The notes beneath the pieces are model-generated. The model saw only the letters and a program-made list of their open reading frames with translations. It did no database searches and was not told the origin of the DNA. DNA of 64,000 bases from a virus, in IMG/VR virus record IMGVR_UViG_3300049043_000244, positions 1 through 64,000 of that record; one strand, 5' to 3'. Below are positions 13,854 to 59,325 of the stretch, one piece after another. A program made the translations under genes and the position numbers. Position 1 is the first letter of the stretch. Each line of letters begins with the position of its first letter.

Positions 13854-13925
13854 AGCCCCGACTGGATTTGAACCAGCGACCAACGGTTTACAAAACCGTT
13901 GCTCTACCACTGAGCTAGCAAGGGC
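13854..13925 (-). tRNA. tRNA-Thr(TGT)
   Basis: D-arm GCTCAGTGGTAGAGC; anticodon arm ACGGT-TTTGTAA-ACCGT; T-loop GGTTCAAATCC. Confidence 0.92.
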
Positions 13926-13949: not shown

Positions 13950-14032
13950 TAGGAGCGGGGGGACTTGAACCCCACGGGCATACGCCCAACAGATTTTAAG
14001 TCTGGTGTGTCTACCGATTCCACCACGCTCCC
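13950..14032 (-). tRNA. tRNA-Leu(TAA)
   Basis: GGGAGCGTGGTGGAATCGGTAGACAC; anticodon arm CCAGA-CTTAAAA-TCTG; long variable arm GGGCGTATGCCC; GGTTCAAGTCC. Confidence 0.92.
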
Positions 14033-36270: not shown

Positions 36271-36947
36271 GAGTTCTTGTTTCTGTTTTGTATGTGACAA
36301 ATTCTCTAATGTACTTGGTAAGAAGTTTAATATAGTGACCCTTGTTTCTTTTTTCATAGACGAAGCATTCTCCATTGTCAGCGACCATAATAGTAATCAA
36401 TTTTTGGACTGGAATACCAGTCATTTCATAATACATGCAAGCATATGCTGTTTCCTGGACAAAATAGTTTTCAATCCATTCTTCAGGTTTAATTTTCTTC
36501 GAAGTCTTGAAGTCAATAACTGCGAGCTCTCCCTCGTACTCTGCGATGCAATCAACTCTGCCCGCAAGTCCCAAGTAGTCACTATAAAGTGACTTTTCTA
36601 AAGCATGTATATTATTTATACGATCTAGATAGGGTTTAGCTGCAAGAAAGAGAAACTTTGTAACAGGAAGAGGATTGTATTTGTCAATGTCTTCATTTAA
36701 CAAATACTTCTCAACAATATCATGGAACTTGGTTCCACGATCTGTTGCAACCTTAGTGATCTTATTGGCTTCTTCCTCACCAACTTTCTTACGCCACTCA
36801 ACAAATTTCTGTCTGCCATAGAAACTGGTCACAGAAGTAATAGAAGGGTATAACTTACCAGAAGGAACTCGATAAAATCGAGTCCCCTCTATCATTTCTA
36901 ACCTCCAAATCAACTTCTTCTTTTAAATAATCTAAGTGAACAAACAT
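36260..36947 (-). CDS. PD-(D/E)XK exonuclease
   Basis: YPSITSV...RGTKFH...AGRVDCIAEYEGELAVIDFKTS...YFVQETAY. Confidence 0.85.
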
Positions 36948-37706
36948 TACATACCTAAACCTAATTTAGCAACAATATAGTTTTTGACAAGTCCAGAACG
37001 AACGATATCATCAACTCCAAATTCTACCATGGAAAAATCATATTCCATTGCACGAATAATTTTCATAAAATCAAGAATCCCATTTTTTTCATGGGTTTTA
37101 ACAAGATCGGATTGAGTAGCATCACCACAGAATACAATCTTACTATTTTCACCAATACGAGTAATTATACTATCTAATTCGTGAAAGTTCAAGTTTTGCA
37201 TTTCATCAACTAACACGATTGCATTATCGAGAGTTGTACCACGAATAAAACTTGTTGACCAGAATGAAATCGTCTCTTGAGCTTTCAGATTACTATAGAG
37301 CATCTCGAAGTCCGCATCTGAAGGCAACTCAAACATGTACTTACACATGTTCTTATATGGAATTTGGTAGAGTGAAGATTTATCTTCATGATCTCCAGGA
37401 AGAAAACCGATTTCTCTTGTAGACACAAGAGATCTTACAATATAAACCTTTTCATAGGGTGTTCTTTCATCTAGAACATCTTTAAGTGCAAGATAAAGCC
37501 CAACGAATGTTTTTCCTGTTCCTGCGGCACCATAGGCAAAAATATTTTTGCCTTTTTTATATTCATCAAAAAAGATTTTTTGATTATCAGTTAACGGAGA
37601 AATGTCCGTCATTGAATCAGAATTAATTGGTTTTTTACGGCGCATTTGTTTTGCGCTCATACCGATACCAATGTTGCCGTTTGGAGGACTTTCTTGATCT
37701 TGGCAT
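36947..37706 (-). CDS. phoH: PhoH family ATPase
   Basis: GAAGTGKT; IGFLPG; FIRGTTLDNAIVLVDEMQN; GDATQSD; DIVRSGLV. Confidence 0.95.
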
Positions 37707-37707
37707 A

Positions 37708-37957
37708 CTAGATCTTCTTTACTCGTGAACCAGGTGCTTTTCGAGCTTCAGTGAGAACATCATTCCAGCCTGGATTTCTGGAAATGAGTTTGTCTTTCCA
37801 CTCGCCGACTTCACCCGCATTAGGGCATGTAGATGGATCGCTCCAATCTCTGTCCCAATTCCGGATTATTCCTCTTCCACTGATCCCAGTCGTGAACACT
37901 CATCGACACTTCTTTCTGTTCGCCAGTGGATTTATTAATAACAGGATAAGTCGCCAT
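37708..37957 (-). CDS. Conserved small protein upstream of phoH
   Basis: MATYPVINKSTGEQKEV...GWNDVL...KAPGS. Confidence 0.6.
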
Positions 37958-37990: not shown

Positions 37991-38837
37991 TTACAAAACC
38001 TTATGAGCAATGTAACTCTGAGAGGAGATTTGTTCTATGTTCCACTTTATTATAGGCTTTACATAATAATCGTCATCCTTTTTTAATTTAAATTTTTTGT
38101 AGTTGATTCTATTGTGTTTTTCTAAAATTAATTTATGAACAACATTATCATCATCAACATTGTTGTACTTTTTGATGTGATCTCTAATTGCGACTTCTAA
38201 ATGTTTTTTCTCATTGTATGCTTGAAATTCTTCCACTCTTTTCTTGGTTAAATGTGGCAAAGAAAAGAGAGTTTTTTCATCAAATTTGATATTCACGTGT
38301 TTTAAACCTAAGAGTAAAATTCTCTCATAAATTTCAGTATCTTCCCAGGCAGCAATTTATTCATGTTTTCATTGTATCCACCAATTTTAAAGTAATTTTC
38401 TTTTGATATGTACAAAGTACCCCAAAGTGGTTTTAAATACTTATAATTTTGATAGACATGTTTTGGATCAGACTTTGCATTTGTAAAATGCCAAGACTCA
38501 TCTGTACCTGTTAAAAATGACTTATCATCAATAGTATGATGATCAAAAAAATTGAAGTATGGATTCATGACAGTATCTGAATCCAATTTTAAGATATAAT
38601 CACTCTCAACTAAAGATGCGGCTAAGTTTAATGGTTGAGGTTGATTGAAATATGGTTCTTTTGGAACAGTGATGATCTTAATTCGACTATCTAATCGAGT
38701 TAAATGATTGACTGGTTTATCAGAATTCCAATCTGTTACGATGATTTCATTAACCTCGTCAAACTGAATCCATGAACTTATAGAAATTGTTAAAGCTTCA
38801 CCCTGTTTTTACAGGCAGATATTATCGAAATACTCAT
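37991..38837 (-). CDS. GT-A fold glycosyltransferase (GT2/GT7-like), paralogue 2
   Basis: ACKNR...DWNSD...LKLDSD...FKIGGYNENM. Confidence 0.75.
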
Positions 38838-39678
38838 ATTTTGACAGTTCGTATAATTGATCACTTATTTGGATGACTTCCCATTTATAAATTGGTTCCG
38901 AATACCAATCTACGTTTATTTCTTCATCTGGATTTTCTTTTGGTTCTAAATTAAGAACTTGAGTCATTCTAGATGATATTGGATATACATTATGATTTTT
39001 ATCTTTAGATAATTTTGCAATATATTTGTAGAGATCGTCACCCACCAAATCTTTTCCAAATTCACTTAAAATTTTAGTTATACTATTAAAGGATTCAAAA
39101 TTTTTTACTCGATCTTGATCTGTATGAGGAATATGTAGGGCAGAACACTTTTGTATATCAATTAGAATTGGATCGAGGCCATAGGATATTAATCTTACAG
39201 CCAACTCATCATCTTCCACTGCATAATACTTCCCATTATTTTCATTATATCCACCAACTTTTCTAAAAGTTTCGGTTTTTACATACAACAACCCCCAAAG
39301 AGAGTGTAAAAAATGAAAATCCATTCCTTCTAACAAATTGTTAGATCCTGACACAAAAGATTTTTCTGTAATTTTATGAATATCAAAAAAATTAAAATAC
39401 GGATTTAGTATGTGATCACAATCCAATTTGAGAAGGTTTTCATTTTTAACTAAAGATGCAACTAAGTTTAATGGTTGAGGTTGATTAAAGTATGGTTCAT
39501 TTTTTACATTAATAATTTTTATTTTTTCACTTAAAATTGTTAGATGATCTATGGATTCATCCGAATTCCAATTTGTTACAATAATTTCATCAACCTCATC
39601 AAATTGCATCCATGAAGCCATGGACATGGCTAGGGGCTTATTTCTATTTTTACATGCGGATATTATTGAAACTGACAT
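38825..39678 (-). CDS. GT-A fold glycosyltransferase (GT2/GT7-like), paralogue 1
   Basis: SACKNR...LKLDCD...KVGGYNEN...EDDELAVRL...HIPH. Confidence 0.8.
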
Positions 39679-39886
39679 TTTATCGGCTGATTTCAAGTTC
39701 TGAATAATCTAATTTTTGAAGTTCTTCTGGTTTAATTTCTTGAGTTTTGAACTCTCCGTTTTCAGTATATTCAATGATATATTTGTCGGGCGTCAGCTAC
39801 GATCGTGCATGAAGTCCAAACTTTGTCTTTTGTTACTGCCTGTGTTTGGTAATACATGTTACCTCCTTAGGGGGCATTGGTATATA

Positions 39887-41057: not shown

Positions 41058-41230
41058 CGTTCCTTCAGTCGGCTTTTTGCGTCTATGAAAAACTTACAAG
41101 TCTTTGGAGATCCTTCTTTAAAAATCTGAATGAGTTCAGATCTTTCAGCTCATCCATTTTTAGTTTTACATTACCAATAAGTCTTTGACTTGTACACAAG
41201 TCCAGAGAATTGTTTCCATAGATGAACGAT
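41058..41230 (-). ncRNA. glnA-type glutamine riboswitch aptamer 2 with about 120 nt inserted in the P2 loop
   Basis: AUCGUUCA-UCUAUGGAAA[insert]UUUUCAUAGA-CGCAAAAAGCCGACUGAAGGAACG; P1 CGUUC/GAACG and a 10 bp P2. Confidence 0.65.
41065..41219 (-). CDS. Putative small ORF nested inside aptamer 2
   Basis: Starts METILWTCVQ; as read it stops after 17 aa, while another frame reads ERSELIQIFKEGSPKTCKFFIDAK; a peptide of about 50 aa needs indel corrections. Confidence 0.45.
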
Positions 41231-41276
41231 CCGTTCCGAGTCGGCTTACTTCCGTCTGGTTTTCCAGATGAACGAT
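41231..41276 (-). ncRNA. glnA-type glutamine riboswitch aptamer 1
   Basis: AUCGUUCA-UCUGG-AAAA-CCAGA-CGGAAGUA-AGCCGACU-CGGAACG: P1, P2 and the GGAAGUA junction of the glnA motif. Confidence 0.75.
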
Positions 41277-45363: not shown

Positions 45364-45836
45364 TCATCCATAATGATACTGTCTCCATTCTTCAACATTG
45401 GTTCGTTTCGAGATCAAAAATTATTTTGTTTAGTGGGGCTTTTGGTTTTCGCATTAATTTCATTCCCGTATGTTCCAAAAGCGTATTCCTTTTTGGTGTT
45501 ACAAGAACTACATGCAACTACTAGATTTTCCCAAGAATCATCTCCACCCCGAGAGCGAGGAACTATATGATCTATAGTCAATTTAGATCTAGCTCCACAA
45601 TACTGGCAAGTATTATTATCTCGTTTGTAAATCATTGAACGAGATGGAGAAATGTCCATTATTTTAGATAATGGCAATTTCACATAGTCTAGGAGTCGTA
45701 TCACTCTACTTGAAAGCACTTAACTTTTCTTTGAGGAGAAGAACAATAACTCTTTCCAGTTTGTAAAATTGATTGGTTCATAACTAGAATTTAAAACCAA
45801 TACCGTTTTATGTGGTTCTATTGGTAACTCATGCAT
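45364..45836 (-). CDS. HNH endonuclease (McrA-like)
   Basis: [10 protein letters not shown]...[13 protein letters not shown]...[25 protein letters not shown]. Confidence 0.85.
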
Positions 45837-47882: not shown

Positions 47883-49422
47883 TTATTTACTAAGTAATTG
47901 ATGAGTTTTTTCAAACCAAAGATAATCTCAGATGTGAATTATTTAGAGTGTTAAGTGCATCCTACCGGAGTTTCCACTAGAGGTTGGTCTACTGACAAAT
48001 TAAAACTGGTGTTTAAAAGTATTCCATACCCAGACAATTTTTTAAACTTCAGACAAAGCTCATGTAAATAACCATCTATTTTCGATATCGTTTGAATTCT
48101 ACATGTATTGTCGATGTGAGTTATTCCAGGTAACATTTTAACATACTTTTCTGTTACTGGGAAACATATTGTCATATGTGGACTCGATTCAATTCTACCC
48201 ATATCAAAGTAAATATTAGCATCCTCTTCCAATACTACACAAGCAAAAGGTCTATACCATTCCCTTTTTTAATTTGATTTACAATTTCTTTTGCATCTTG
48301 GATTTAGTGCATTAAAAAGGATGGAACGATTTCCAAGTGCTTCTTTGACCAGCTTCTGCAAGACCACTATAAACTGCAACCGACTTATTTTGATTTAATA
48401 ACTTGGCAACATCTTGCACAGATAACATAATTCCTTTATACGAAGAAACGTCGTAATTGAATCCATGAAAGAAAGTTGTTTCAATCGAATTGGGAGATTT
48501 TCCAGTCAATTCAATATAAGAATTAATTGCAGCACCTATACTTACTCCATTATCATTACATAGTGGTTCAAAATAAAACTCTATATCAGGAAATCTTTGC
48601 AAGTAATAGTAATTTGCAACGATATTCATACCGTAACCACCAGAGATACATACTTTTTTAATTCCTGTTTTTTCTATCGAGTCTTGTATTAAATCGCCAA
48701 TTGATTTTTGTGTTTGTTGTTGGACTTCATAACAAAAGTCGGCATATAGTTGATAATTATCAACTTTTACCTTTTCAATGGGTTTTATATTTGGATTTTG
48801 TTTGTAAAAGTAAATTTTGAAACAATTCATTTGAAGATCCATAAGATGATAGTCCCATTGCTTTTCCACAATCATCTGGGGTGTTTCCAATTAATACTCA
48901 AAGCCATATCATACAATCCACCCACCCCAACTTTACCCAAGGAAAATCAAAAGATGAAAATGATTCTACAGCGTTTTTATAAATCAATGTATTTTTTTGA
49001 CGATTAAATACAAAAACACTCTCCACTTCCACCAAGTTATCTTTTATTTCCGATCCAGACCCATCAGCTACGATGACCAAACTCTCATCAAATTTACTAT
49101 TGCAAAAAGCGAGAGAAGCATGATTTAAATGATGATCTTGTTGTAATACTAACTTTACATTTGAATTATATTTTTTACATTCTTCAAAAATTGTCGTTAT
49201 AAACTTATCTCCCTGGGGAGGGTTAAAATTAGATACACAAATTATATCAAGAGATTCTTCTAACTCACTACAAATTTGTTTTATTAGATGTAAAATTGAA
49301 TTTTTGTCGTAATCATGCTTTTTTCTAGTAAATCTTTCAATTAAAAAATATTTTTTTACACTACCATTCTCCAGAACACATATCGAAGAATTATGCCCCA
49401 GATGAACACTTAATATTACCAT
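47883..49422 (-). CDS. Carbamoyltransferase (NodU/CmcH family), frameshifted
   Basis: GHNSS...ERFTRKKHD; HHLNHA; VADGSG; SGGYGMNIVAN; NDNGVSIGAA; EAGQRALGNRS; REWYRPFA; THIDNTCRIQT; LLNTSFN. Confidence 0.9.
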
Positions 49423-50277
49423 TTTTCCAAAAATTCTTTTATATCCTTGAGAGGCATTTTCATAATCATTTCTTTATCATTTGGTTTATCATAAGTGAAG
49501 AAATCTTCCAATAAAAATTTATAATGATGATTTTTCCACCACTCTTCTATTAGTCTACTACAAATTACATCCATAGGATACATTTTATTATTGTTGATAA
49601 GATTGTCTCCGTTTAGACTCGTATTAAGACTGAAAAGAGGTATTGAATACGTAATTCCAATATCAAATAAATTTGCATCATGCAGCTATTTCTACTTTAC
49701 TGTGTTTCATATGATATGAATTATCCCTAAAAGTTAATCTATATTTACCATCACGATACAATAAGTCTTTCAGTTTTTTGGCATATGAACGATTGATTAA
49801 GTATGCAGCTCCAGATCCAGACAATTTTCTTCGTTTATGTAAAAACATGGGAATAGATAATCCATCTTCAGAATATGCACTACAAAAATAAAGTTGAATA
49901 CATTCCCAATTTTCTGGTAAGTTATTCTCAAAATAAGTCCAATCAAAATTCCAATACTTTATATCTAACTAATGATAGATCATCTTCCATCATTAAACAT
50001 GTTTCAGATGGATGAGTATCGTACCAATTTATAATGGTTTCTATATTATTCAGTGCAACCGACATTACCGATAAGGATTCCAAAATTTCCTTTTCCACCA
50101 CTACATCTTTCCACTCATCGTACTTGGAAACATGATACTTAGAAGCATTAACTCTATGGTAATTTGTTATGCCCAATAATTAAATTGGGATTCCATCGAT
50201 CCTCTTCTATCAGTCCTATGTTCTAGATTGATATAATATATTGGAGGAAGACCTTTGAGTTTATTTTCTAAGTCCAT
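49416..50277 (-). CDS. GT25-like glycosyltransferase, paralogue 1
   Basis: KLKGLPPIYYINL..R.DRR; LMMEDD; WECIQL; AAYLINRSYAKKL. Confidence 0.7.
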
Positions 50278-51241
50278 TATTCTCTTTCAAGATCCAATGT
50301 AACACAGTGAAAACAACCACTTAAAGTTCTTGAATATCTCATAGGAAGCATTACACACTCTATTCCATGTTTTTCCAGTTCTTTTCGAGTAGGTTCTTGT
50401 CTTTCCTCTAAAGCAACTAAATTTGGATTCACACTAAAAAGATTCATGTTACACCATTCTGAGGCATGGTTGTAACCTGGAAAATAACCAATATCCACGG
50501 GTTCTGGACACCAAACCACATCCCAGTTCCTAAAAGGTTCTGGAAGAACATCAACAGACTTAATTCTTCCCGGATTTAACAACATTAAACCTTCACGAAG
50601 AAATGCAATCGTGGTATCAATGTGCATATAACTATAAACACCCTCAAGAAGATGTACTTTTGCACGATCTCCAAGCATTTCTTGCAGTAAATCGAACTCC
50701 TGCAATATTTCCACTATTCGATACAAGATACAAAATATCATCATTTGCACGAATGATATTGACTGCATCAAAAGCAGGAGTAATCTCAGGTCAATGCAAG
50801 AGTATCTTTGTCTCCTACACAATTCTCATTGTAAAGTTCTTCCTGATGTTTGCAAGGAACAATGATAGTAGTGTTTAAACGATCAATTAGAGGTTTCCAT
50901 GCATCTTTTCTGCACTCCAAAGGCATTGGAGTTGCAATAGTAAGATCCTTATGAGTAAAAATTACATCTCTGGGACAAAAATTGTAATAATCGGTAGGAG
51001 TTCTCTTTGGTCTTACAACTTCTACACCTTCACCCAACAGAAATTTAACAAAATTCTCTAAATCCTCGTTGGCTTCGTCTATAACCTGTTGGGGATACAA
51101 TCCTACGGGAACATCGGAAATATCACTTCTGTCTGCATAATTGATTGTACGAACACTCAGATCAACTTCAGGAACTCTTGCATAATCTGCAACACCTACG
51201 ATTACCTTTTTTAATTTATCCCACTCATTCTGACTTTTCAT
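50277..51241 (-). CDS. Amidinotransferase (glycine/inosamine-phosphate amidinotransferase family)
   Basis: NEWDKLKKVIVG; FCPRD; HIDTT; LSGCFHCVTLD (catalytic His and Cys). Confidence 0.9.
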
Positions 51242-51738
51242 TTCAAAACCCCAGTAACTTGAATCGCATATCGGTCTTTCATACTAAAGTTATAAAATGC
51301 ATGTATTTCGTCATACTTCCAATAAAAACAATCTCCACTCTCCAAGTACAGTGTGCAGTATCTTTAATTTGCAAAATTTGTCCCGGAGAACTATCCTCCA
51401 ACATAACCATACATCTCATCACTTTATCAGAATCTACATCATTTATTTCCACATACTTACCATATAAATCCGTGTGAAGAGGCAAATATTGACCAGGTTT
51501 AAAATAGTTTACTGCACACGCAACTTTATCCCAAAAATCAAAGTGAGGAATAATATGTTCATCCACACATTTGGGCATAGGGTTGGGTAACTGGTACTTA
51601 TAAATCGAGAGTTTTTCCTTATTATGACCTGAATTTAGATATTGATTCACCAACTCCTCATCTTTATGAGTTGCTAAAAATATAGTCAAGATCATAAAAA
51701 TCTACAATATTCCAATTAGGTTTGATATGACTAATCAT
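51238..51738 (-). CDS. 2OG-Fe(II) oxygenase-like protein
   Basis: PGQYLPLHTD...HAFYNFSMKDRYAIQVTG. Confidence 0.7.
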
Positions 51739-52322
51739 TTAAATACTGACATCTGTGTTAAATCGGGGTAATCCCTGTGGCTCCATTTTTACCAGGAGTT
51801 TTTTTCCGCTCATTTCAGTAATTCAATACCGGTTTTGGCCACCTCGGGAGTCATGTAATAATGATACCCCATAGTAGTTATGTCCTGTTCAGCCCATGGA
51901 CGACTGGGATCACGACCATCATATGACATTTTTTTAAGTGTATCATAATCCTCTTTATTTTGCAACAAGATCGCACCACCTCTTCCGAGATTCAAATGTT
52001 TCTTAAACTGAAAACTTAAACACATGAATGTTCCAGGAATATATGTGTTCTCACCCCAAAGAACGGCAGCATCAATGATATTTGTACCTCCCAAATAGTA
52101 GTAATCCGACCACTCTTCTTCTCTCCAACTCCATTCCAACTTAAGTTTCATACAAGTCATTGGAACTGAAACATAAGTCCTCTTAGGAATTGTAATATAA
52201 TCTTCGTGAGTGTATCTCAGACAAAGTTCAAGTGCATGAGTACACGAATCAGTAGCCATTGCATGTGGAGCTCCAAAAAACTCTGCAATTTGAGATTCAA
52301 ACTCAGTAACGTACTCAAACAT
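51735..52322 (-). CDS. Minimal DegT/DnrJ/EryC1/StrS PLP aminotransferase
   Basis: ATDSCTHALEL; IIDAA; CLSFQFKKHL..GRGGAIL; GYHYYMTPE. Confidence 0.85.
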
Positions 52323-53178
52323 CTTCAAATTCTCCTGGTAAAATTATTCTATCATTTGACTTGCCATAAGTAAAGAAGTCTTCCAAAGTATATTGGTCTC
52401 GGAGTTCTTTCCACCATTTTTTGCAGTTTATAAGAGAATGCTAGGTCTGTCCTCTCCTCTTTTCTACAAACATTTTGAGCCAACTACCAAGACTTGCATT
52501 TACAGAAAATAATGGTATACAATATGTTTTGCCATTATGTCCAAGAAAATAATCGGTGGTAAAATTTGGCATTCCCAACCCCTCATATTTACCAATTGCT
52601 TGACTAGACCATTTATAGTTACAAATTTTTTGAGAAAGGTCAAACTTACCATCTTTATAGTGAAGACTTATTATTTTTTCTGCATATCTTCTATTGATCA
52701 AAGAAGCACCAGTATCATGTCCATACATAATTGGATGCAAAAAACAGGGACAACATTCTTCATTCTCAAAAGTCATTTGAATACAGTCCCAATCGTATGG
52801 AATGTGATTCATTAGATATTCCCAATCAAAATGCCAATAATCAATAAAACTAAGATCGTAATCATCTTCCATGATGATAACATATGGATCATTGGTTGTT
52901 TCTAACCAATTTTTAATGTTAATTAGATGAGAAAGAGTGATAGAAATTTCAGCAATATGAAAGTTTCTTCTATGATAGTCTTCAAATGAATTTAAAATAA
53001 CCAGATCTTTCCACTCTTCATATGTTGAAAGTTGATACTTCGACCCCGATACTTTGGTGTAATTTTTAATTCCCCAATAATCGTATTGAATTTCAGTATA
53101 TTCTTGTTTATCAGGCCTCTCATCAATTGTTGCTAAAATGATAGGAGGAAGTCCCTTCAGTTTATCTCTCAAATTCAT
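52315..53178 (-). CDS. GT25-like glycosyltransferase, paralogue 2
   Basis: SHLINIKNW; IIMEDD; PYDWDCIQM; LINRRYAEKI. Confidence 0.75.
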
Positions 53179-53986
53179 GATGTACTTCTATAATTAATTC
53201 TTTTTGTTTTATTGAATTTAAATAAAAAATATCATCCAAAGTATAATTTTGACATTTATTTTTCCACCAATCAAAAACTAAAAGATCACAATTTTTAGCC
53301 ATGTGATTTATTTTTCCATTTCTAAATCCATCACTTATAAAATTATAATTAGTGGTAAAAATTGGAATTGAATATGTTATTCCTACTTGATATAAAACAA
53401 AATCTACAGACTGATAGTGATATTCTGGCCAATTTTCTGTATATCCATAATTAGAATACAATTTAAATTGATTATTTGTGTAATGAAGTTTGATTAATTT
53501 TTGTGCATAAGATCTGTTAATGAGTATACAACCCGTAGAATGGTTATTCCGAGTCCATTTAGACAAATTCATTTTAATAAATTGTTCTCCAATAATGTGG
53601 AGTTGTACGCACTCCCAATTACATGGCAAATGATCAATGAATGTTGGCCAATCAAAATTCCAATACTTAACAGTGTCTAAGGAAATATCATCTTCAACTA
53701 TTAGACAAGTTTCAGAGACATTAGAGTCATACCAATCAATTATACCATGAATTCTATCAACTAAGGTAGCGAGAAACCACACTTGAGTTCTAAGTTTGTC
53801 GATTAAAACTTCCGATTTCCAATCATCGTAGTTATCCACAGAATATCTAGAAGAATCAACTCTATGATAATTTGTTATACCATGATTCAAAAATTGTGTT
53901 TCAAGATATTCTCTACGATCTGTTCTATGATTTAGATTAAAATAATAGATTGGAGGAAGTCCATCTAATTTGGAATTAATTATCAT
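53162..53986 (-). CDS. GT25-like glycosyltransferase, paralogue 3
   Basis: YYFNLNHRTDRR; LIVEDD; WECVQL; LINRSYAQKLI. Confidence 0.75.
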   Translation of the reverse strand: MIINSKLDGLPPIYYFNLNHRTDRREYLETQFLNHGITNYHRVDSSRYSVDNYDDWKSEVLIDKLRTQVWFLATLVDRIHGIIDWYDSNVSETCLIVEDDISLDTVKYWNFDWPTFIDHLPCNWECVQLHIIGEQFIKMNLSKWTRNNHSTGCILINRSYAQKLIKLHYTNNQFKLYSNYGYTENWPEYHYQSVDFVLYQVGITYSIPIFTTNYNFISDGFRNGKINHMAKNCDLLVFDWWKNKCQNYTLDDIFYLNSIKQKELIIEVHHEFER

Positions 53987-54777
53987 TGGAAATTTACCCT
54001 TTCGACCATTTCATAATCATTTTTCTTTCCATAAGAAAAAAAGTCTTCTAAAGAAAAATTATCTCTTTTATTTTGCCACCAATCATAGTATATATCTCTA
54101 CAAATAAAATGATGTTCTTTTGGAACTTTGTCCAAATGTGGATTTTGAGTTATTAAAGGTAGTTGATATGTAACTCCCAAAAAACAAATAAAAGTGTCCA
54201 ATGAAACTACTCGATGTCCTTTGTTAAGTGGATATGCACCATACTTACGAACCAATAAGTATTTTTCTTTTATATAATGCAAATTAATTAACTTTTGAGC
54301 AAAATGTCTATTAATTAAAATTGGCCCATAAGCACTTGTTTTGTCTTTAGGATGAAGAAAAAACCGAATATATTTTGTAGATTCAAATCCCAATTGAATG
54401 CAATCCCAATCATAAGGAATGTTTTTGATTAAATATTCCCAATCAAAATGCCAATATTCGATTAGATCCAAATCGTAATCGTCTTCAAATAAAATTAAGT
54501 GTTTCTCATCAGTGGTTTCTAACCAATAACGAATCATTTCAAGAGTAGAGAGTGATCGAGCCGCAAGTCGATGACTCTCTTCAACAATTATTTGAGGGTA
54601 GTGCAATATTTCTTTCCAGTCGTCATAATTTTCTACCAAATAATTTGATCCAGAAAATCTTGTTACGTTGGTCAAATTCCATTTTTCAAATTGTTTCTCC
54701 ATGTATTTTCTTCTATCTACGTCAAAATCTAGATTCAGATAGTAGATACTTGGAATTCCTTTGAGTTTATTAGACAT
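53983..54777 (-). CDS. GT25-like glycosyltransferase, paralogue 4
   Basis: YYLNLDFDVDRR; ILFEDD; PYDWDCIQL; LINRHFAQKLI. Confidence 0.75.
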   Translation of the reverse strand: MSNKLKGIPSIYYLNLDFDVDRRKYMEKQFEKWNLTNVTRFSGSNYLVENYDDWKEILHYPQIIVEESHRLAARSLSTLEMIRYWLETTDEKHLILFEDDYDLDLIEYWHFDWEYLIKNIPYDWDCIQLGFESTKYIRFFLHPKDKTSAYGPILINRHFAQKLINLHYIKEKYLLVRKYGAYPLNKGHRVVSLDTFICFLGVTYQLPLITQNPHLDKVPKEHHFICRDIYYDWWQNKRDNFSLEDFFSYGKKNDYEMVERVNFQ

Positions 54778-55942
54778 ACCATGTAATAATTGAATATCGT
54801 GTCCCAGAGGTTACAGGCATGATTTCATGTGGATACATGAAGTTAGATGGAAACATGATAATAGATCCTTTCGATCCACTTATTATAATTTCTCGATCGA
54901 AAAATGCGAACTCACCGCCTTCGTAATCATCATTTAAAAGAAAAGAACAACTTACAGATCTTTGTTGATTTTTAAATGAATCGGTATGTTGTACATAAAA
55001 CTGGCCCTCTCTATATCTCAACAAACCATATCCAGTATCAATTTCTGAGCTGACATTGGGAAATAATTTTCGATATTCATTTATCGACTCTGAGGCACAA
55101 ACATAGAAATCTTCATCTATTTTTTTTCTAACATCAAAATTTTTTTCAAGAACCACACTTTCAGAGATGTTGATGGTATCACAATTTCTAATTTCATGGT
55201 TAAGATTTCCAGATCCTACCGTGGTTGGAGACCAAAAACTACAGTCTCGATACTCTTCAATAATTCTATTGCACAATTCCTCTGAAACAACATTATCTAA
55301 TGTAAAAATATAATCTTCTAAAGATTTTTTACTTCTTGGTGAAGTTGTTTTTGTTTCAGTAATGATCTGTTTAATATCAGTATTGTCAGTTATAGGTTTC
55401 TCCGTCTCATTTAGTTTATCAAAATATGTATAAGAACAATCTCCCCGACTTCTGACATAGTGTAAAAAGACCTGAGTATAATTTTTTCCCTGGTAGGGCC
55501 CTCTCCAATGAACTGCATTCCTACCCAAGTAAATCATGGCATCACCAGGATTCAATTTAACGCAACGTTTCTCTCCAGACGGAGTTTCTATCCATATAGG
55601 CCAACTAGAATCTCCATCTAGATGTAAAGTTACTGATATTTCACAAGCATCTCTATCGGTATGAGCCAATAGTTCACTTCCATTTTTATATACTCTGGAA
55701 TAAACATAAGTTGGTAAAACAGTTTCTTCGATTAAAGAAGAAATTTCTGGAGTTTTTTCACAAAGTAATTCCAAAAATGAAATATAATTATAAGTAGAAT
55801 AAGAATTTGGAGCCTGTGAATCTCCATCTACATTATTTTTTTCACAATGACTTAAAAACTCTGCGGAAAGATCTATGGATCTTTCTTTTGAAATAAAATT
55901 TGGCAGTATGATATAATTATTTTCAATTAATTGTTTGTTCAT
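54770..55942 (-). CDS. Two-domain 2OG-Fe(II) oxygenase (C-terminal prolyl 4-hydroxylase-like)
   Basis: Domain 1 HTDRDACEIS...HWR...QVFLHYV; domain 2 HTD...LNDDYEGGE...FPSNFMYPHEI.PVTSGTRYS. Confidence 0.9.
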   Translation of the reverse strand: MNKQLIENNYIILPNFISKERSIDLSAEFLSHCEKNNVDGDSQAPNSYSTYNYISFLELLCEKTPEISSLIEETVLPTYVYSRVYKNGSELLAHTDRDACEISVTLHLDGDSSWPIWIETPSGEKRCVKLNPGDAMIYLGRNAVHWRGPYQGKNYTQVFLHYVRSRGDCSYTYFDKLNETEKPITDNTDIKQIITETKTTSPRSKKSLEDYIFTLDNVVSEELCNRIIEEYRDCSFWSPTTVGSGNLNHEIRNCDTINISESVVLEKNFDVRKKIDEDFYVCASESINEYRKLFPNVSSEIDTGYGLLRYREGQFYVQHTDSFKNQQRSVSCSFLLNDDYEGGEFAFFDREIIISGSKGSIIMFPSNFMYPHEIMPVTSGTRYSIITWYV

Positions 55943-55966: not shown

Positions 55967-56489
55967 TTAAATTTCTCTTAAAAGTTCTTCAATATCATAG
56001 AATAAATCTTCATCTTCATCTTCTTCTTCCTTATTTTTGTTCTCTTCAGCATATGTTAAGGATTCGACTGGAGGAATATGTGTTGGCGTCGGAGGAATAT
56101 TAGGAGTTTCAATTTCTTCATTGAGCTGCAAGGTGATCAAGATATAATCCATAATCCTCTTCAATTTCATCAAAATAAACAAACTGGGATTTCAAACGTT
56201 CTTCCTCTTCTTTTTTGCGTTTTTTCTAGTTCTAGTTGTTGTTTCATAAAGCATCTTCCTCTTCTTTTTTTTCATTCCATAAATCGATAGCCTTTTCAAA
56301 GATGCCTAACTCACCAATTTTTAAATTTTCATAAGGGCCAACAAACTCTACTTCACCACTATCATCAATCCATTGAACTGCGTGAACTTTTTTTCCATCA
56401 ATATCAGGAACCCAATCGAGATCCATATGACTATAACCAACTCCCTCCATGTAAATGGTATTATCTGAGGGGATAATTGTCAACCTCAT
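55967..56489 (-). CDS. Tail-fibre-assembly-like protein
   Basis: MRLTIIPSD...VHAVQW...GEVEF; acidic tail. Confidence 0.5.
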
Positions 56490-56837
56490 GATTTATTCTC
56501 CCGAGTTTTCTGGTAATGTGTGCGTACTAGTTAAAGAAGTTACATTTACTGGTAAAAATGCCATTTTGTTGAATCATATCAATATATAGTTGTCTGTTTT
56601 CATTATTAGATTTTACCACTTCATTTCTAAAAGATTCAACAGCTGCACCAGTTTGTCTTTGTTGTTGAGAATTTTCAATCGTTAACATGGGCATCCAGGT
56701 CACAGCACATGACCAATGATCTACCTCTTGCCCAGTATTTGGATTCATTCCCCTCACATGCATGTACCAAGAACACTTATGTTCTACGCAATCTTTTCTA
56801 ATAAGGGGCAAAAATTACCAGATTCGTTTTTTTTCAT
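56490..56837 (-). CDS. Conserved Cys-containing phage protein
   Basis: FCPLIRKDCVEHKCSW...ENSQQQRQTGAAVESFRNE. Confidence 0.65.
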
Positions 56838-56870: not shown

Positions 56871-57388
56871 TTAATTAAAACTACAAACAATAACATCTAT
56901 GTATTGAACTCTTAAATCAACATTTGCAGAAAATGCGGACTGTTCCAGACCAAGGGTGACTATGCAGCTCACCGCCACCAGCAGGCTCCTGGTAGCCGGA
57001 AAACTTCTTGACGAACCTGGACCAGCCAACATCACCTCCGCCTGGAGACAGTCCGACAAATCCACCATTAGGATGACTATGACTGGTATTTGTGAAGTAG
57101 TTAGAGTAGTATTACCAACAGTTCCCGTCATTGGTACAGACGCTGCTGTTATTGTTCTAAATGAGTTTGGAAATACTGTAGTAAAAGAAGACGTGCCTCC
57201 AGATCCGCCGCCCGTTCCATTAACAACTCTAAGAGTCTTGTCATCATGCGTTGTAGATTTTGTCCATCCAGTAGGAGCAGCTTGCTTGAAAAAATATAGA
57301 CACCGAACTTTGTGGAACAATACCATACTTTGAATTTAAAACCGTTGAGTCACCAAAAGTCACTCCTGCTGATGTTAATTTCAGCCAT
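56871..57388 (-). CDS. Tail-collar/short fibre protein, paralogue 1
   Basis: FFQAAAPTGWTKSTTHDDKTLRVV.G.GG; TTLTTSQIP.H; VQYIDVIVCS. Confidence 0.75.
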
Positions 57389-57425
57389 TTTATATGATGT
57401 AAACTACAGATTTTATCTAAAGTAT

Positions 57426-57985
57426 TTATCCATCAAAAGTACAGACAATTACATCTACATATTGGACTGCAATATTGAGAGTTTGTGTTGGAACAGATCC
57501 AGAAACAGAAACCGGAATGTAAATGTGAACCATTAGATCCTTCAGATCCAGTTACGGGAGAATTTCTAGTCCACCCACCAGGTACGAACCACGTCTCCAC
57601 CATTCCATCCAGTAAATCCGCCATCAGGATTGAAATTGGCAGGAACTTCGTTCCATAAGCTACACCATTACTAGGATGAGTGTGACTAGGAAGTTGAGGA
57701 GTCGTTAATGTAGTTCCACCAGTAGCATCAGAAGAAGCTAATGTTCCATCAGCAACACTCAACGTGCTCATAGTAGTTGTAAAAGAATTTGTTCCAGGCA
57801 GATCCGCCACTGCTTCCTGATACCACTCTAAGTGCTTTATTATTTTGAGTTGTATTTTGAGTCCATCCAATGGGTGCTGAGGACTGATAAAAAATCCAAG
57901 CTGTACTTTGTGGAAAAATTCCTCTTCTTGAATTTAATTGAGTTAAATCACTAAACGTAATACCATTTGCAGTCAACTCAGCCAT
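57426..57985 (-). CDS. Tail-collar/short fibre protein, paralogue 2
   Basis: FYQSSAPIGWTQ...NKALRVVSG; TTLTTPQLPSHTH; VQYVDVIVC; TATAAATA late promoter at 58018-58025. Confidence 0.75.
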
Positions 57986-58051
57986 AGTTTATGGTGGGAT
58001 ATTACTTGCTTTTAGAATATTTATAAGTCAATATAATTAATCCTACAATGT

Positions 58052-58294: not shown

Positions 58295-59325
58295 TTAACT
58301 TAATATAAAATCCAATGATTATTTTTAAGAGACCACTCAACAACTTCTGCAATTCTCTCTCGTACAGATTTTGCAGGTTTCCAGTCCCATCTGTTTCATT
58401 TTATCACTATTCAAAGCATAACGCAAGTCATGCCCAGGCTCAGAGAATGAAAGTCAACCAATTCATATTTTAATTCTTTCTTTTGAACTTGAGCAATAAT
58501 TTGTGCAAGTTCAAGATTGTTTAATTCTTCTGCACCAATAATGTTAAATTTAGGGCACCTAATATCTCCATACGTTATTTTAAACTTGCCCGAGTAATTT
58601 AATAAAAATAAAACACTAGATGCAACATCTTCTGCATGAATGTAGTGTCTTGATCCAGGAATAGTTTTGGTTGCATCACTGTGAATCATAATAGATTCTC
58701 CATCCCGAATCTTCCGAATGCACATTGGGATATATTTTTCGGGATGTTGGCGTTCACCAAAGACATTCATCGTGTGAGTAATATAGATGGGAAGACCGTA
58801 GGTATTTTCGTAAGCAACCCGCAGTCTTCTCCACCAGCTTACTTGCACTATAAGGATTTGTTGAATTATATCGATCATTCTCTTTGTATTTGATTCCATG
58901 AGGAAGTGACAAACACTTCATCCGTACTGAAGTAAATAAATCTTTCTAAATTGTCTTTCTGGGTTCTTGCAAACTCAAGAATGTTACATGTTCCCACAAC
59001 ATTATCCATTACAAATTCCATAGGATACTTAATACTTCGATCCACATGAGAACCAGCCGCAAGATGAAGAATGTAATTAACTGTACCGATTTGACTACAA
59101 ACTAAAGAATTTAGTTCGGATTTAAGATCATGATAAACTATTTTTACACGTCTACGAACTTGTAAATCAAAAGACATCATTATCTCATCAAGACGATTTA
59201 AGTTACCACTATAATCAAGACGGTCAAGGGAAACGATGTCCCAATCAGTGTGAGTTAGGAGATAACTAATCAAATGATGTGCAATAAATCCTGCACCGCC
59301 AGGTAATAAGTACTTTTTTACTCAT
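58295..59325 (-). CDS. dTDP-glucose 4,6-dehydratase (RmlB-like), frameshifted
   Basis: KVLITGGAGFIAHH; LDRLDYSGN; HLAAGSHVDRSI; FSTDEVF; NVFGERQHPEK. Confidence 0.88.

Follow-up and report, generated by a model that had tools for sequence, protein, structure and literature searches.

We analysed a stretch of 64,000 nucleotides of viral DNA (the window hereafter), which makes up the first 64 kb of a viral contig in IMG/VR (84,028 bp, completeness rated at 39%). Nine co-oriented genes at positions 47883-55942 of its minus strand encode 2-oxoglutarate (2OG)/Fe(II) oxygenases, GT25-like glycosyltransferases (GTs), an aminotransferase, an amidinotransferase and a carbamoyltransferase. Judged from sequence comparisons, these genes cluster far beyond chance, and the operon is real, abundant and conserved in many T4-like cyanophages. 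Lake and marine viruses of cyanobacteria carry it, and the copy in the window is of poor quality. As a tentative reading of the whole chain, which we rate somewhat short of an even chance, the operon would build and tailor an O-glycan on a virion protein, with tail-fibre-like proteins as the first candidates.

Read from 55942 down to 47883, the genes encode a double 2OG oxygenase, three GT25-like enzymes (GTa, GTb and GTc), a miniature DegT-type aminotransferase (mini-DegT), a small 2OG oxygenase, an amidinotransferase, a fourth GT25-like enzyme (GTd) and a carbamoyltransferase; the genes upstream of the operon also lie on the minus strand. Stop-to-stop open reading frames (ORFs) and tblastn with intact orthologues recovered the same nine families, on the same strand and in the same order, that a preliminary description of this DNA had listed, and family, motif and fold evidence agrees with the enzyme families it had named. 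The overlapping or abutting start and stop codons described there are found in an intact relative, locus L005, where neighbouring genes overlap start to stop, but six of the copies in the window are broken, which that description had not reported. An IMG/VR scan with the C-terminal piece of the amidinotransferase as query yielded 166 relatives, from which 80 loci were fetched. Mini-DegT accompanied 73 of the 81 amidinotransferases in these loci and so did the small 2OG oxygenase, GT25-like genes were present with 52-62, the double oxygenase with 49 and the carbamoyltransferase with 31-33. Dozens of independent metagenomic contigs carry the same genes together (55-90% amino-acid identity), and about 25 loci preserve the exact gene order of the window (65-90% amino-acid identity), each gene there being one intact ORF. 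Co-occurrence in other phages had been named beforehand as one of the points on which the proposal of a common pathway could fail; the cluster genes are found together widely, and the proposal stands in this respect. Furthermore, a large protein collection contained 4655 homologues of the amidinotransferase (E ≤1e-10), some of them on contigs of 236-251 kb.

The amidinotransferase and mini-DegT form, with the small oxygenase, the distinctive core of the operon. The amidinotransferase gene (50277..51241, minus strand; 320 aa in relatives) is read in frames -1, -2 and -3 of the window, with breaks near 50788 and 50693, and is uninterrupted in 61 distinct relatives; its pieces in the window share 89-93% identity with the orthologue of L005. 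In a search of the Protein Data Bank (PDB), the orthologue of the cultured cyanophage S-SCSM2R matched StrB1 over its full length (1bwd, 1.2e-60, residues 4-318), followed by HsvA (1.6e-38), AGAT (8e-36) and SxtG (2e-30). The segments CPRD, MHIDTT and GCFHCVTLD (FHC) align to StrB1 motifs and are also present in the window translation; we take them to be the site of the catalytic Cys-His-Asp triad. The earlier family call holds, since sequence comparison places the enzyme nearer to StrB1 than to glycine amidinotransferase (208 versus 127 bits), and the protein is predicted to be a StrB1/AGAT-type member of the pentein-fold family. Among 50,697 phage records, the sole close match of the amidinotransferase was S-SCSM2R. 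The only other isolates with a homologue were 12 Campylobacter phages (22-25% identity), all myoviruses, CP220, CPt10 and CP20 among them.

Mini-DegT (51735..52322, minus strand; 195 aa in relatives) is a DegT-type aminotransferase dependent on pyridoxal phosphate (PLP), and its window copy contains stops at 51810-51812 and 51789-51791. It matches Pfam PF01041 (3.9e-16, 59.7 bits against a cut-off of 19.8), its PLP residues D84 (DAA) and K108 (SFQxKK) are invariant in an alignment of 22 sequences, and its profile finds sugar aminotransferases in the PDB (5e-10), perosamine synthetase among them. The viral proteins, 53 distinct sequences, and the one of Bdellovibrio all measure 195-222 aa, compared with ~360-400 aa for canonical two-domain enzymes, and by this comparison mini-DegT is a conserved miniature and not a truncation. 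The gene was present in 7 of the 50,697 phage records, with S-SCSM2R as the sole cyanophage among them, and occurs in a 642-kb phage and in a glycan (nucleoside diphosphate (NDP)-sugar) cluster of a Flavobacterium phage. The closest cellular relatives of both core enzymes are in Bdellovibrionota (44-51% identity for mini-DegT, 45-48% for the amidinotransferase). In Bdellovibrio sp. HCB2-146, mini-DegT lies in an operon with a radical S-adenosylmethionine (radical-SAM)/SPASM enzyme, a UDP-sugar dehydrogenase and an epimerase/dehydratase, and this placement in an NDP-sugar operon points to a putative chemistry at the sugar-nucleotide level. As an observation in its own right, mini-DegT and a StrB1-like amidinotransferase occur together in predatory Bdellovibrionota genomes (L086, L087 and L096), so that the putative guanidino-sugar chemistry may extend beyond phages. 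A radical-SAM partner is encoded in other clades and is absent from the window; the idea that it is BtrN-like was unsupported, its nearest relatives being viperin-like proteins, HxsC and MoaA.

The first gene of the operon, the double 2OG/Fe(II) oxygenase (54770..55942, minus strand), is intact in the window and encodes 390 aa with the HxD...H...R triad in both halves. It matches Pfam PF13640 (3.9e-18), and both triads are invariant in the alignment. In profile searches of the PDB its C-terminal half found the collagen prolyl 4-hydroxylase (P4H) of B. anthracis (8.5e-7), PHD2, P3H1 and LH3, while its N-terminal half belongs, according to the ESM Atlas, to a cyanophage family mislabelled 'ferrochelatase'. 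The small 2OG/Fe(II) oxygenase (51241..51738, minus strand) has 166 aa in relatives and is split into three frame segments in the window. No family match was found for it and its profile retrieved nothing from the PDB sequences; the HxD...H...R triad is nevertheless invariant, and an AlphaFold2 (AF2) model with a mean confidence (pLDDT) of 95 aligned in VIA-align with PiuC, PHD2, P4H and the sugar-acting SnoN at Z 13-15. Foldseek returned a mixture of cupins and oxygenases, and a cupin sugar isomerase of FdtA/QdtA type was considered less likely because the top VIA-align rows are 2OG oxygenases aligned over ~145 of 166 residues; FdtA and QdtA are not listed there. Taken together, the operon is predicted to encode three 2OG domains of P4H type with the double-stranded beta-helix fold, two in the double and one in the small enzyme. 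The last gene, for a NodU/CmcH/TobZ-type O-carbamoyltransferase (47883..49422, minus strand; 509 aa in relatives), is present in the window as at least three frame segments with two stops, and its fragments match Pfam Carbam_trans_N/C. The L005 protein matches Carbam_trans_C at 1.9e-54 and Carbam_trans_N at 7.7e-17, and the closest PDB entries are 7xb6 (3e-39) and TobZ (2.8e-38).

All four GT25-like genes lie on the minus strand. GTa (53983..54777, 264 aa, with a DXD motif) and GTb (53162..53986, 274 aa) are intact in the window, GTc (52315..53178) has an in-frame stop at 52441-52443 and homology to about residue 290, and GTd (49419..50277; 286 aa in relatives) is broken into four frame segments with one stop. 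They represent separate conserved orthologue groups. The label 'GT25-like' in the preliminary description was only partly borne out by family searches: with a cut-off of 24 bits, Pfam PF01755 gave 12.8 bits for GTa and 14.6 bits for GTb (E 0.03-0.11) and no match for GTc and GTd of the window, although the GT25 fold emerged from a structural model. S-SCSM2R ORF303 exceeds the cut-off at 31.9 bits. The AF2 model of the L005 orthologue of GTa (pLDDT 94) matched in Foldseek Mimivirus R655 (4.7e-9), human COLGALT1 (1.8e-6) and a bacterial beta-1,4-galactosyltransferase (beta-1,4-GalT; 2.5e-6) with TM ~0.5, at a sequence identity of 14-16% to R655 and COLGALT1. Within the DXD motif, D100 is invariant and D101 is retained in at least 90% of 29 paralogues, and GTa matches the glucosyltransferase family PHROG 2835 (4e-37). 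The model thus predicts a GT-A fold nearest to the collagen-type hydroxylysine galactosyltransferases, and the link to these enzymes that had been drawn earlier is strengthened by the position of the genes beside P4H-type oxygenases. We also noted that the C-terminal ~40 residues of all four groups carry a conserved WW.N.RD.F.L.DFFTYGK.ND segment (in the window for example at 53983-54100). It lies outside the sole PDB sequence match of the GT25 profile (R655, profile positions 12-106) and might serve all four groups in docking or oligomerisation.

Upstream of the operon, a T4-type late-promoter-like motif, TATAAATA (58018-58025, minus strand), precedes the first of two fibre-like genes by ~40 nt. 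Copies of the motif are no more frequent in the window than expected (5 versus 6.4); its place ahead of the fibre-like genes, noted in the preliminary description, is, however, conserved, as TATAAATA stands 39-47 nt upstream of the first of them in L005 and ~27 relatives and is the sole copy in the 12-kb unit. In other clades, variants of NATAAATA (AATAAATA or GATAAATA) occupy the same position. No terminator-like sites were found between genes on the coding strand up to the end of the carbamoyltransferase gene, the three weak matches on the plus strand lying inside coding sequence, and a sigma-70-like promoter follows downstream of that gene. The position of the motif and the lack of an internal terminator predict a late transcription unit of T4 type. 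The two fibre-like genes, PTGW1 (57433..57985, minus strand; ~182 aa in relatives, Gp10_C/collar-like) and its paralogue PTGW2 (56871..57390, minus strand; ~172 aa in relatives), are both broken in the window, the former by several stops, while the L005 orthologue of PTGW1 is intact. They had been described as tail-collar genes. Neither has a Pfam or PHROG match, but PTGW1 leads to Gp10_C/Collar/tail-fibre clusters in the ESM Atlas (0.96-0.98), which we treat as a lead, and homologues in isolates are annotated 'tail fiber protein (virion protein)' (gp128 of phage S-SCSM1, for PTGW1) and 'baseplate protein' (S-SCSM2R).

Two small genes separate the fibre-like genes from the double oxygenase, namely homologues of S-SCSM2R ORF299 (o299, Cys-rich; 56527..56837, minus strand) and ORF300 (o300, with an acidic tail; 55967..56489, minus strand, in two pieces in the window). 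The former lies upstream of the double oxygenase in nearly every untruncated locus that has it, L057 being the exception. A gene for a short-chain dehydrogenase/reductase resembling NDP-hexose 4,6-dehydratases (58303..59321, minus strand; at least three frame segments and 2 stops) lies upstream of the late-type motif; its fragments match Pfam GDP_Man_Dehyd/Epimerase, and the intact L005 orthologue matches TIGR01181, dTDP-glucose 4,6-dehydratase, at E 8e-75 but under the curated cut-off.

The closest isolate counterpart of the operon is ORF299-310 of S-SCSM2R (PQ898602), where o299, o300, the double oxygenase, GT25-like genes, a DegT protein of 195 aa, the small 2OG oxygenase and the amidinotransferase are syntenic at 45-78% identity; the DegT protein is annotated there as 'AHBA synthase' and the amidinotransferase as 'inosamine amidinotransferase'. 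In contrast to the window, this cluster has an extra radical-SAM gene, ends with a GT2 gene in place of GTd and the carbamoyltransferase gene, and has neither fibre-like genes nor a late-type motif upstream. Carbamoyltransferase and fibre-like homologues are found instead in a second cluster 40 kb away. In S-SCSM2R the GT25/DegT/amidinotransferase cluster is headed by o299, o300 and the double oxygenase, and the fibre-like genes stand ahead of the second glycan cluster, which the carbamoyltransferase homologue opens. Phage S-SCSM1 keeps two fibre genes, o299, an o300-like gene and the double oxygenase without GT25, DegT and amidinotransferase genes. From these layouts it follows that fibre, P4H-like oxygenase and glycan genes are adjacent in three different arrangements. 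The authors of the S-SCSM2R genome divided the homologous genes between 'antibiotic synthesis' and cell-wall modification and did not read them as one pathway (BMC Biol 2025, PMC12801897). Two annotations in these genomes are probably wrong: S-SCSM1 gp124 (L167:10577-11938), labelled 'ferrochelatase', is a double 2OG oxygenase (45% over 400 aa), and S-SCSM2R ORF235 (L166:7828-9420), labelled '2OG-Fe(II) oxygenase', is a full-length homologue of the NodU-type carbamoyltransferase (47% over 508 aa). In addition, the carbamoyltransferase homologue of S-SCSM2R is preceded by an annotated wcaG RNA motif (L166:7688-7785), which separates it from the fibre-like 'baseplate protein' genes; in the window this motif was not found.

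The pathway we propose, inferred at each chemical step, builds on the observed enzyme families, their motifs, the gene order, the translational coupling in relatives and the position of the late-type motif. The double oxygenase would hydroxylate Pro or Lys residues of a protein encoded by the phage, with the fibre-like proteins of the same transcript as the first candidates, and the four inverting GT-A enzymes would assemble a short O-glycan at this site, comparable to LH3/COLGALT1 or to Mimivirus L230/R655/R699 on collagen. Either an NDP-hexose 4,6-dehydratase or the small 2OG oxygenase (in other clades the radical-SAM enzyme) could supply a keto sugar, mini-DegT would transaminate it, the amidinotransferase might then use arginine to turn the amine into a guanidino group by way of a Cys-amidino intermediate, and the carbamoyltransferase would O-carbamoylate a free hydroxyl. 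The fully specified form of this proposal, in which fibre or baseplate proteins carry Pro/Lys hydroxylation and a short O-glycan with both guanidino and carbamoyl groups, and in which the module also operates in Bdellovibrionota, is in our view doubtful. Mycobacteriophages, chloroviruses and Mimivirus use their own GTs and sugar-nucleotide enzymes to decorate structural proteins, the latter two with capsid or fibril glycans. To our knowledge, virion glycosylation by phage GTs has not been demonstrated in any cyanophage, and we know of no guanidino sugar in mycobacteriophage, chlorovirus or Mimivirus glycans or in any other glycoconjugate.

Several observations weigh against a glycan on a virion protein. 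The fibre-like genes are missing beside the cluster in the S-SCSM2R clade and in most of the divergent loci that keep mini-DegT and the amidinotransferase, and because many divergent loci have the tailoring core without fibre genes, this core is not tied to them. The dehydratase gene is adjacent in only three loci, the closest relatives. No Gly-X-Y run of at least six repeats occurs in any frame of the 84-kb contig, which covers ~39% of the genome. Finally, GT25 takes in lipooligosaccharide (LOS) galactosyltransferases, and 2OG oxygenases act also on lipopolysaccharide (LPS) sugars and small molecules. The operon might instead remodel the host envelope (LPS/LOS, S-layer or pilin glycans), for instance to block the adsorption of progeny or competing phages, and virion proteins would not be its target; we regard this as rather unlikely. 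LOS galactosyltransferases gave GT25 its name and the fold matches include a bacterial beta-1,4-GalT, such cyanophage clusters have been read as LPS or cell-wall genes in the literature (PMC3037559, PMC12801897, PMC9602691), the operon lies ~10 kb from phoH (36947-37747), where 'LPS clusters' are reported, and many loci have the core but no fibre genes, while cellular relatives lie in NDP-sugar operons. On the other hand, a flippase, a polymerase, a lipid-carrier transferase and a Gtr-type gene are all absent from the nine genes, and three domains resembling P4H-type protein hydroxylases fit an LPS pathway poorly. The operon moreover shares its late-type promoter with the fibre-like virion genes, and the fibre/oxygenase block recurs beside glycan genes in three arrangements, both of which speak against this reading.

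A free product, that is an aminoglycoside-like pseudo-oligosaccharide or guanidino metabolite of the streptidine/bluensidine type, would suit the antibiotic-pathway origin of the nearest solved tailoring relatives (StrB1, TobZ, 2-deoxy-scyllo-inosose aminotransferases and SnoN) and the published 'antibiotic synthesis' annotation of S-SCSM2R (PMC12801897). Such a product is nevertheless improbable, as a cyclitol synthase, an inositol dehydrogenase, a kinase, a phosphatase and an exporter are all missing from the nine genes, GT25-type and P4H-type enzymes are outside known aminoglycoside pathways, other contexts of mini-DegT are NDP-sugar glycan clusters, and a lytic late operon is an odd location for an antibiotic. 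The 2OG oxygenases might alternatively hydroxylate bases of the phage DNA for subsequent glycosylation and decoration as a protection against restriction. Phages are known in which TET/JBP-type 2OG oxygenases, paired with glycosyltransferases, hypermodify DNA, and these pairs offer a precedent. Glucosylation of DNA was speculated upon for S-SCSM2R (PMC12801897), and the error-rich contig might, speculatively, reflect DNA that is hard to read. The oxygenase domains, however, match P4H, PHD and PKHD types, with AlkB only at rank 28, and belong to PF13640 rather than TET_JBP; the GTs have the GT25 fold and are nearest to enzymes that modify proteins and LOS; the context consists of a late promoter and structural genes, not replication genes; and in relatives the region is assembled from short reads without difficulty. 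We consider DNA hypermodification highly improbable.

Gene content, with genes for Gp5-like, PhoH and GT2 proteins, and protein-level matches, almost all to Synechococcus and Prochlorococcus myoviruses, place the window in a T4-like cyanomyovirus. Among sequencing runs a lake-water metagenome was the best DNA match, two 'subsurface metagenome' runs with a small share contain relatives at 90-95% identity instead of the window phage, and no RNA run containing the operon stretch was listed. Megablast of the operon region against the 50,697 phage records gave zero matches, and only protein-level searches worked. Six of the nine cluster genes are interrupted in the window by at least 10 frameshifts and 6 in-frame stops within 4.5 kb, which leaves the double oxygenase, GTa and GTb as the only uninterrupted ones. 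Outside the nine-gene cluster, the dehydratase-like gene, an HNH gene, a GT2 gene and both fibre-like genes are frame-broken as well. Past the end of the window (G000:C1:68000-84028) the GC content rises from ~35% to 55-70% and all six frames are open, and owing to this jump from 68 kb on we recognise the 84-kb contig as a chimera of cyanophage and GC-rich foreign, virus-like sequence. No stop-to-stop ORF of the whole contig exceeds 496 aa, and the coverage with long ORFs is 0.24 in the window versus 0.44-0.57 in related loci. At four break points (48804 and 48899 in the carbamoyltransferase gene, 49683 and 49965 in GTd) a single base is missing in relatives exactly at the break, as read from contigs of the two runs that contain the 90-95% relatives.

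Because of the breaks outside the cluster, the chimeric contig, the poor ORF coverage and the one-base differences in relatives, we prefer the explanation that the frameshifts and stops in the window are errors of a low-quality assembly and not decay, and we judge this to be probable. It is opposed by the uneven distribution of the breaks (0 in the 3.5 kb of 52444-55942 versus ~16 in the next 4.5 kb) and by break sites that do not fall at homopolymers. Both features speak for true decay, by which two thirds of the window operon would be pseudogenes with the double oxygenase, GTa and GTb still functional, as does the identity of ≥99% to the window in the majority of contigs from the probable source run. 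Decay is nonetheless unlikely, given that conserved genes outside the operon are broken, that the contig is chimeric and long ORFs are scarce throughout, that gaps separate some contigs of the source run (records 2 and 4) from the window, and that every gene is intact in more than 50 distinct relatives. Stop-codon recoding was rejected as the source of the in-frame stops, which align to differing residues (G, K, D/L) and are accompanied by frameshifts.

Downstream of the operon the window contains the HNH endonuclease gene (45367-45836, minus strand), in three frames with one stop, and a tandem pair of GT2/Glyco_transf_7C-type glycosyltransferase genes (38006-39708, minus strand), homologues of S-SCSM2R ORF310, of which the downstream copy is in three frames; phoH adjoins this pair. 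Rfam matches indicate a glutamine riboswitch aptamer (41228-41276, minus strand) and two tRNA genes (13861-13917 and 13950-14032, minus strand).

Since the first genomes of large cyanomyoviruses were published, their 'LPS' clusters and their 2OG oxygenases, which number up to two dozen, have stood unexplained. The operon ties both puzzles together, as P4H-type oxygenases, GT25-type transferases and fibre-like virion genes make up modules that recur in different arrangements. The simplest product of the tailoring core would be a guanidino sugar, and since the cultured S-SCSM2R carries most of the pathway, the idea of a guanidino glycan is plausible and directly testable. If the fully specified proposal is true, it would give bacteriophages their first collagen-style hydroxylation and glycosylation system and glycoconjugates their first guanidino sugar, and a miniature sugar aminotransferase and a sugar amidinotransferase would be added as new enzymes. 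The positive charge of the guanidino group could then tune adsorption to the host surface, and for marine and lake cyanophages the proposal would have consequences for host range, adsorption and recognition.

The operon shares features with several known systems. Gene clusters for 'LPS' were described in the large cyanomyoviruses P-SSM2, S-SM2 and S-SSM7 in 2010, with their role left unassigned (Sullivan et al., PMC3037559). As in these, glycan-biosynthesis genes are located in a hyperplastic region near phoH, in cyanophages of more than 200 kb, and NodU-like carbamoyltransferases (142 phage records) and GT25-like genes (98) are common there; the StrB1-like amidinotransferase and mini-DegT, in contrast, occur among cyanophage records only in S-SCSM2R. 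The preliminary description had overlooked that homologous genes are already published (PMC12801897); cyanomyovirus glycan clusters have been known since 2010 (PMC3037559). The glycosylation of collagen hydroxylysine (LH3 with COLGALT1/GLT25D1; Mimivirus L230, R655 and R699; PMC9546862) likewise pairs a P4H/LH-type oxygenase with GT25-fold transferases, and in Mimivirus both kinds of enzyme are also encoded by the virus. The operon differs in its four GT paralogues with 14-16% identity, in the C-terminal WW...DFFTYGK segment and in the amino, amidino and carbamoyl module. With the streptidine/bluensidine branch (StsC, StrB1 and the carbamoylation of bluensomycin) it has in common a DegT aminotransferase followed by a StrB1-type amidinotransferase, together with an O-carbamoyltransferase. 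Unlike that branch, its nine genes lack an inositol dehydrogenase, a kinase and a phosphatase, its aminotransferase is half the size, and GT25-like enzymes and P4H-like oxygenases take the place of partners; the NDP-sugar operon contexts of mini-DegT suggest a sugar acceptor rather than a cyclitol. Since no collagen-like substrate was found in the 84-kb contig and no cyclitol, kinase or phosphatase genes in the operon, it probably belongs, as judged by this gene content, to neither of the latter two pathways. It is a variant of the known phage glycan clusters, distinguished by its core of mini-DegT, small 2OG oxygenase and StrB1-like amidinotransferase and by its linkage to P4H-like oxygenases and fibre-like genes.

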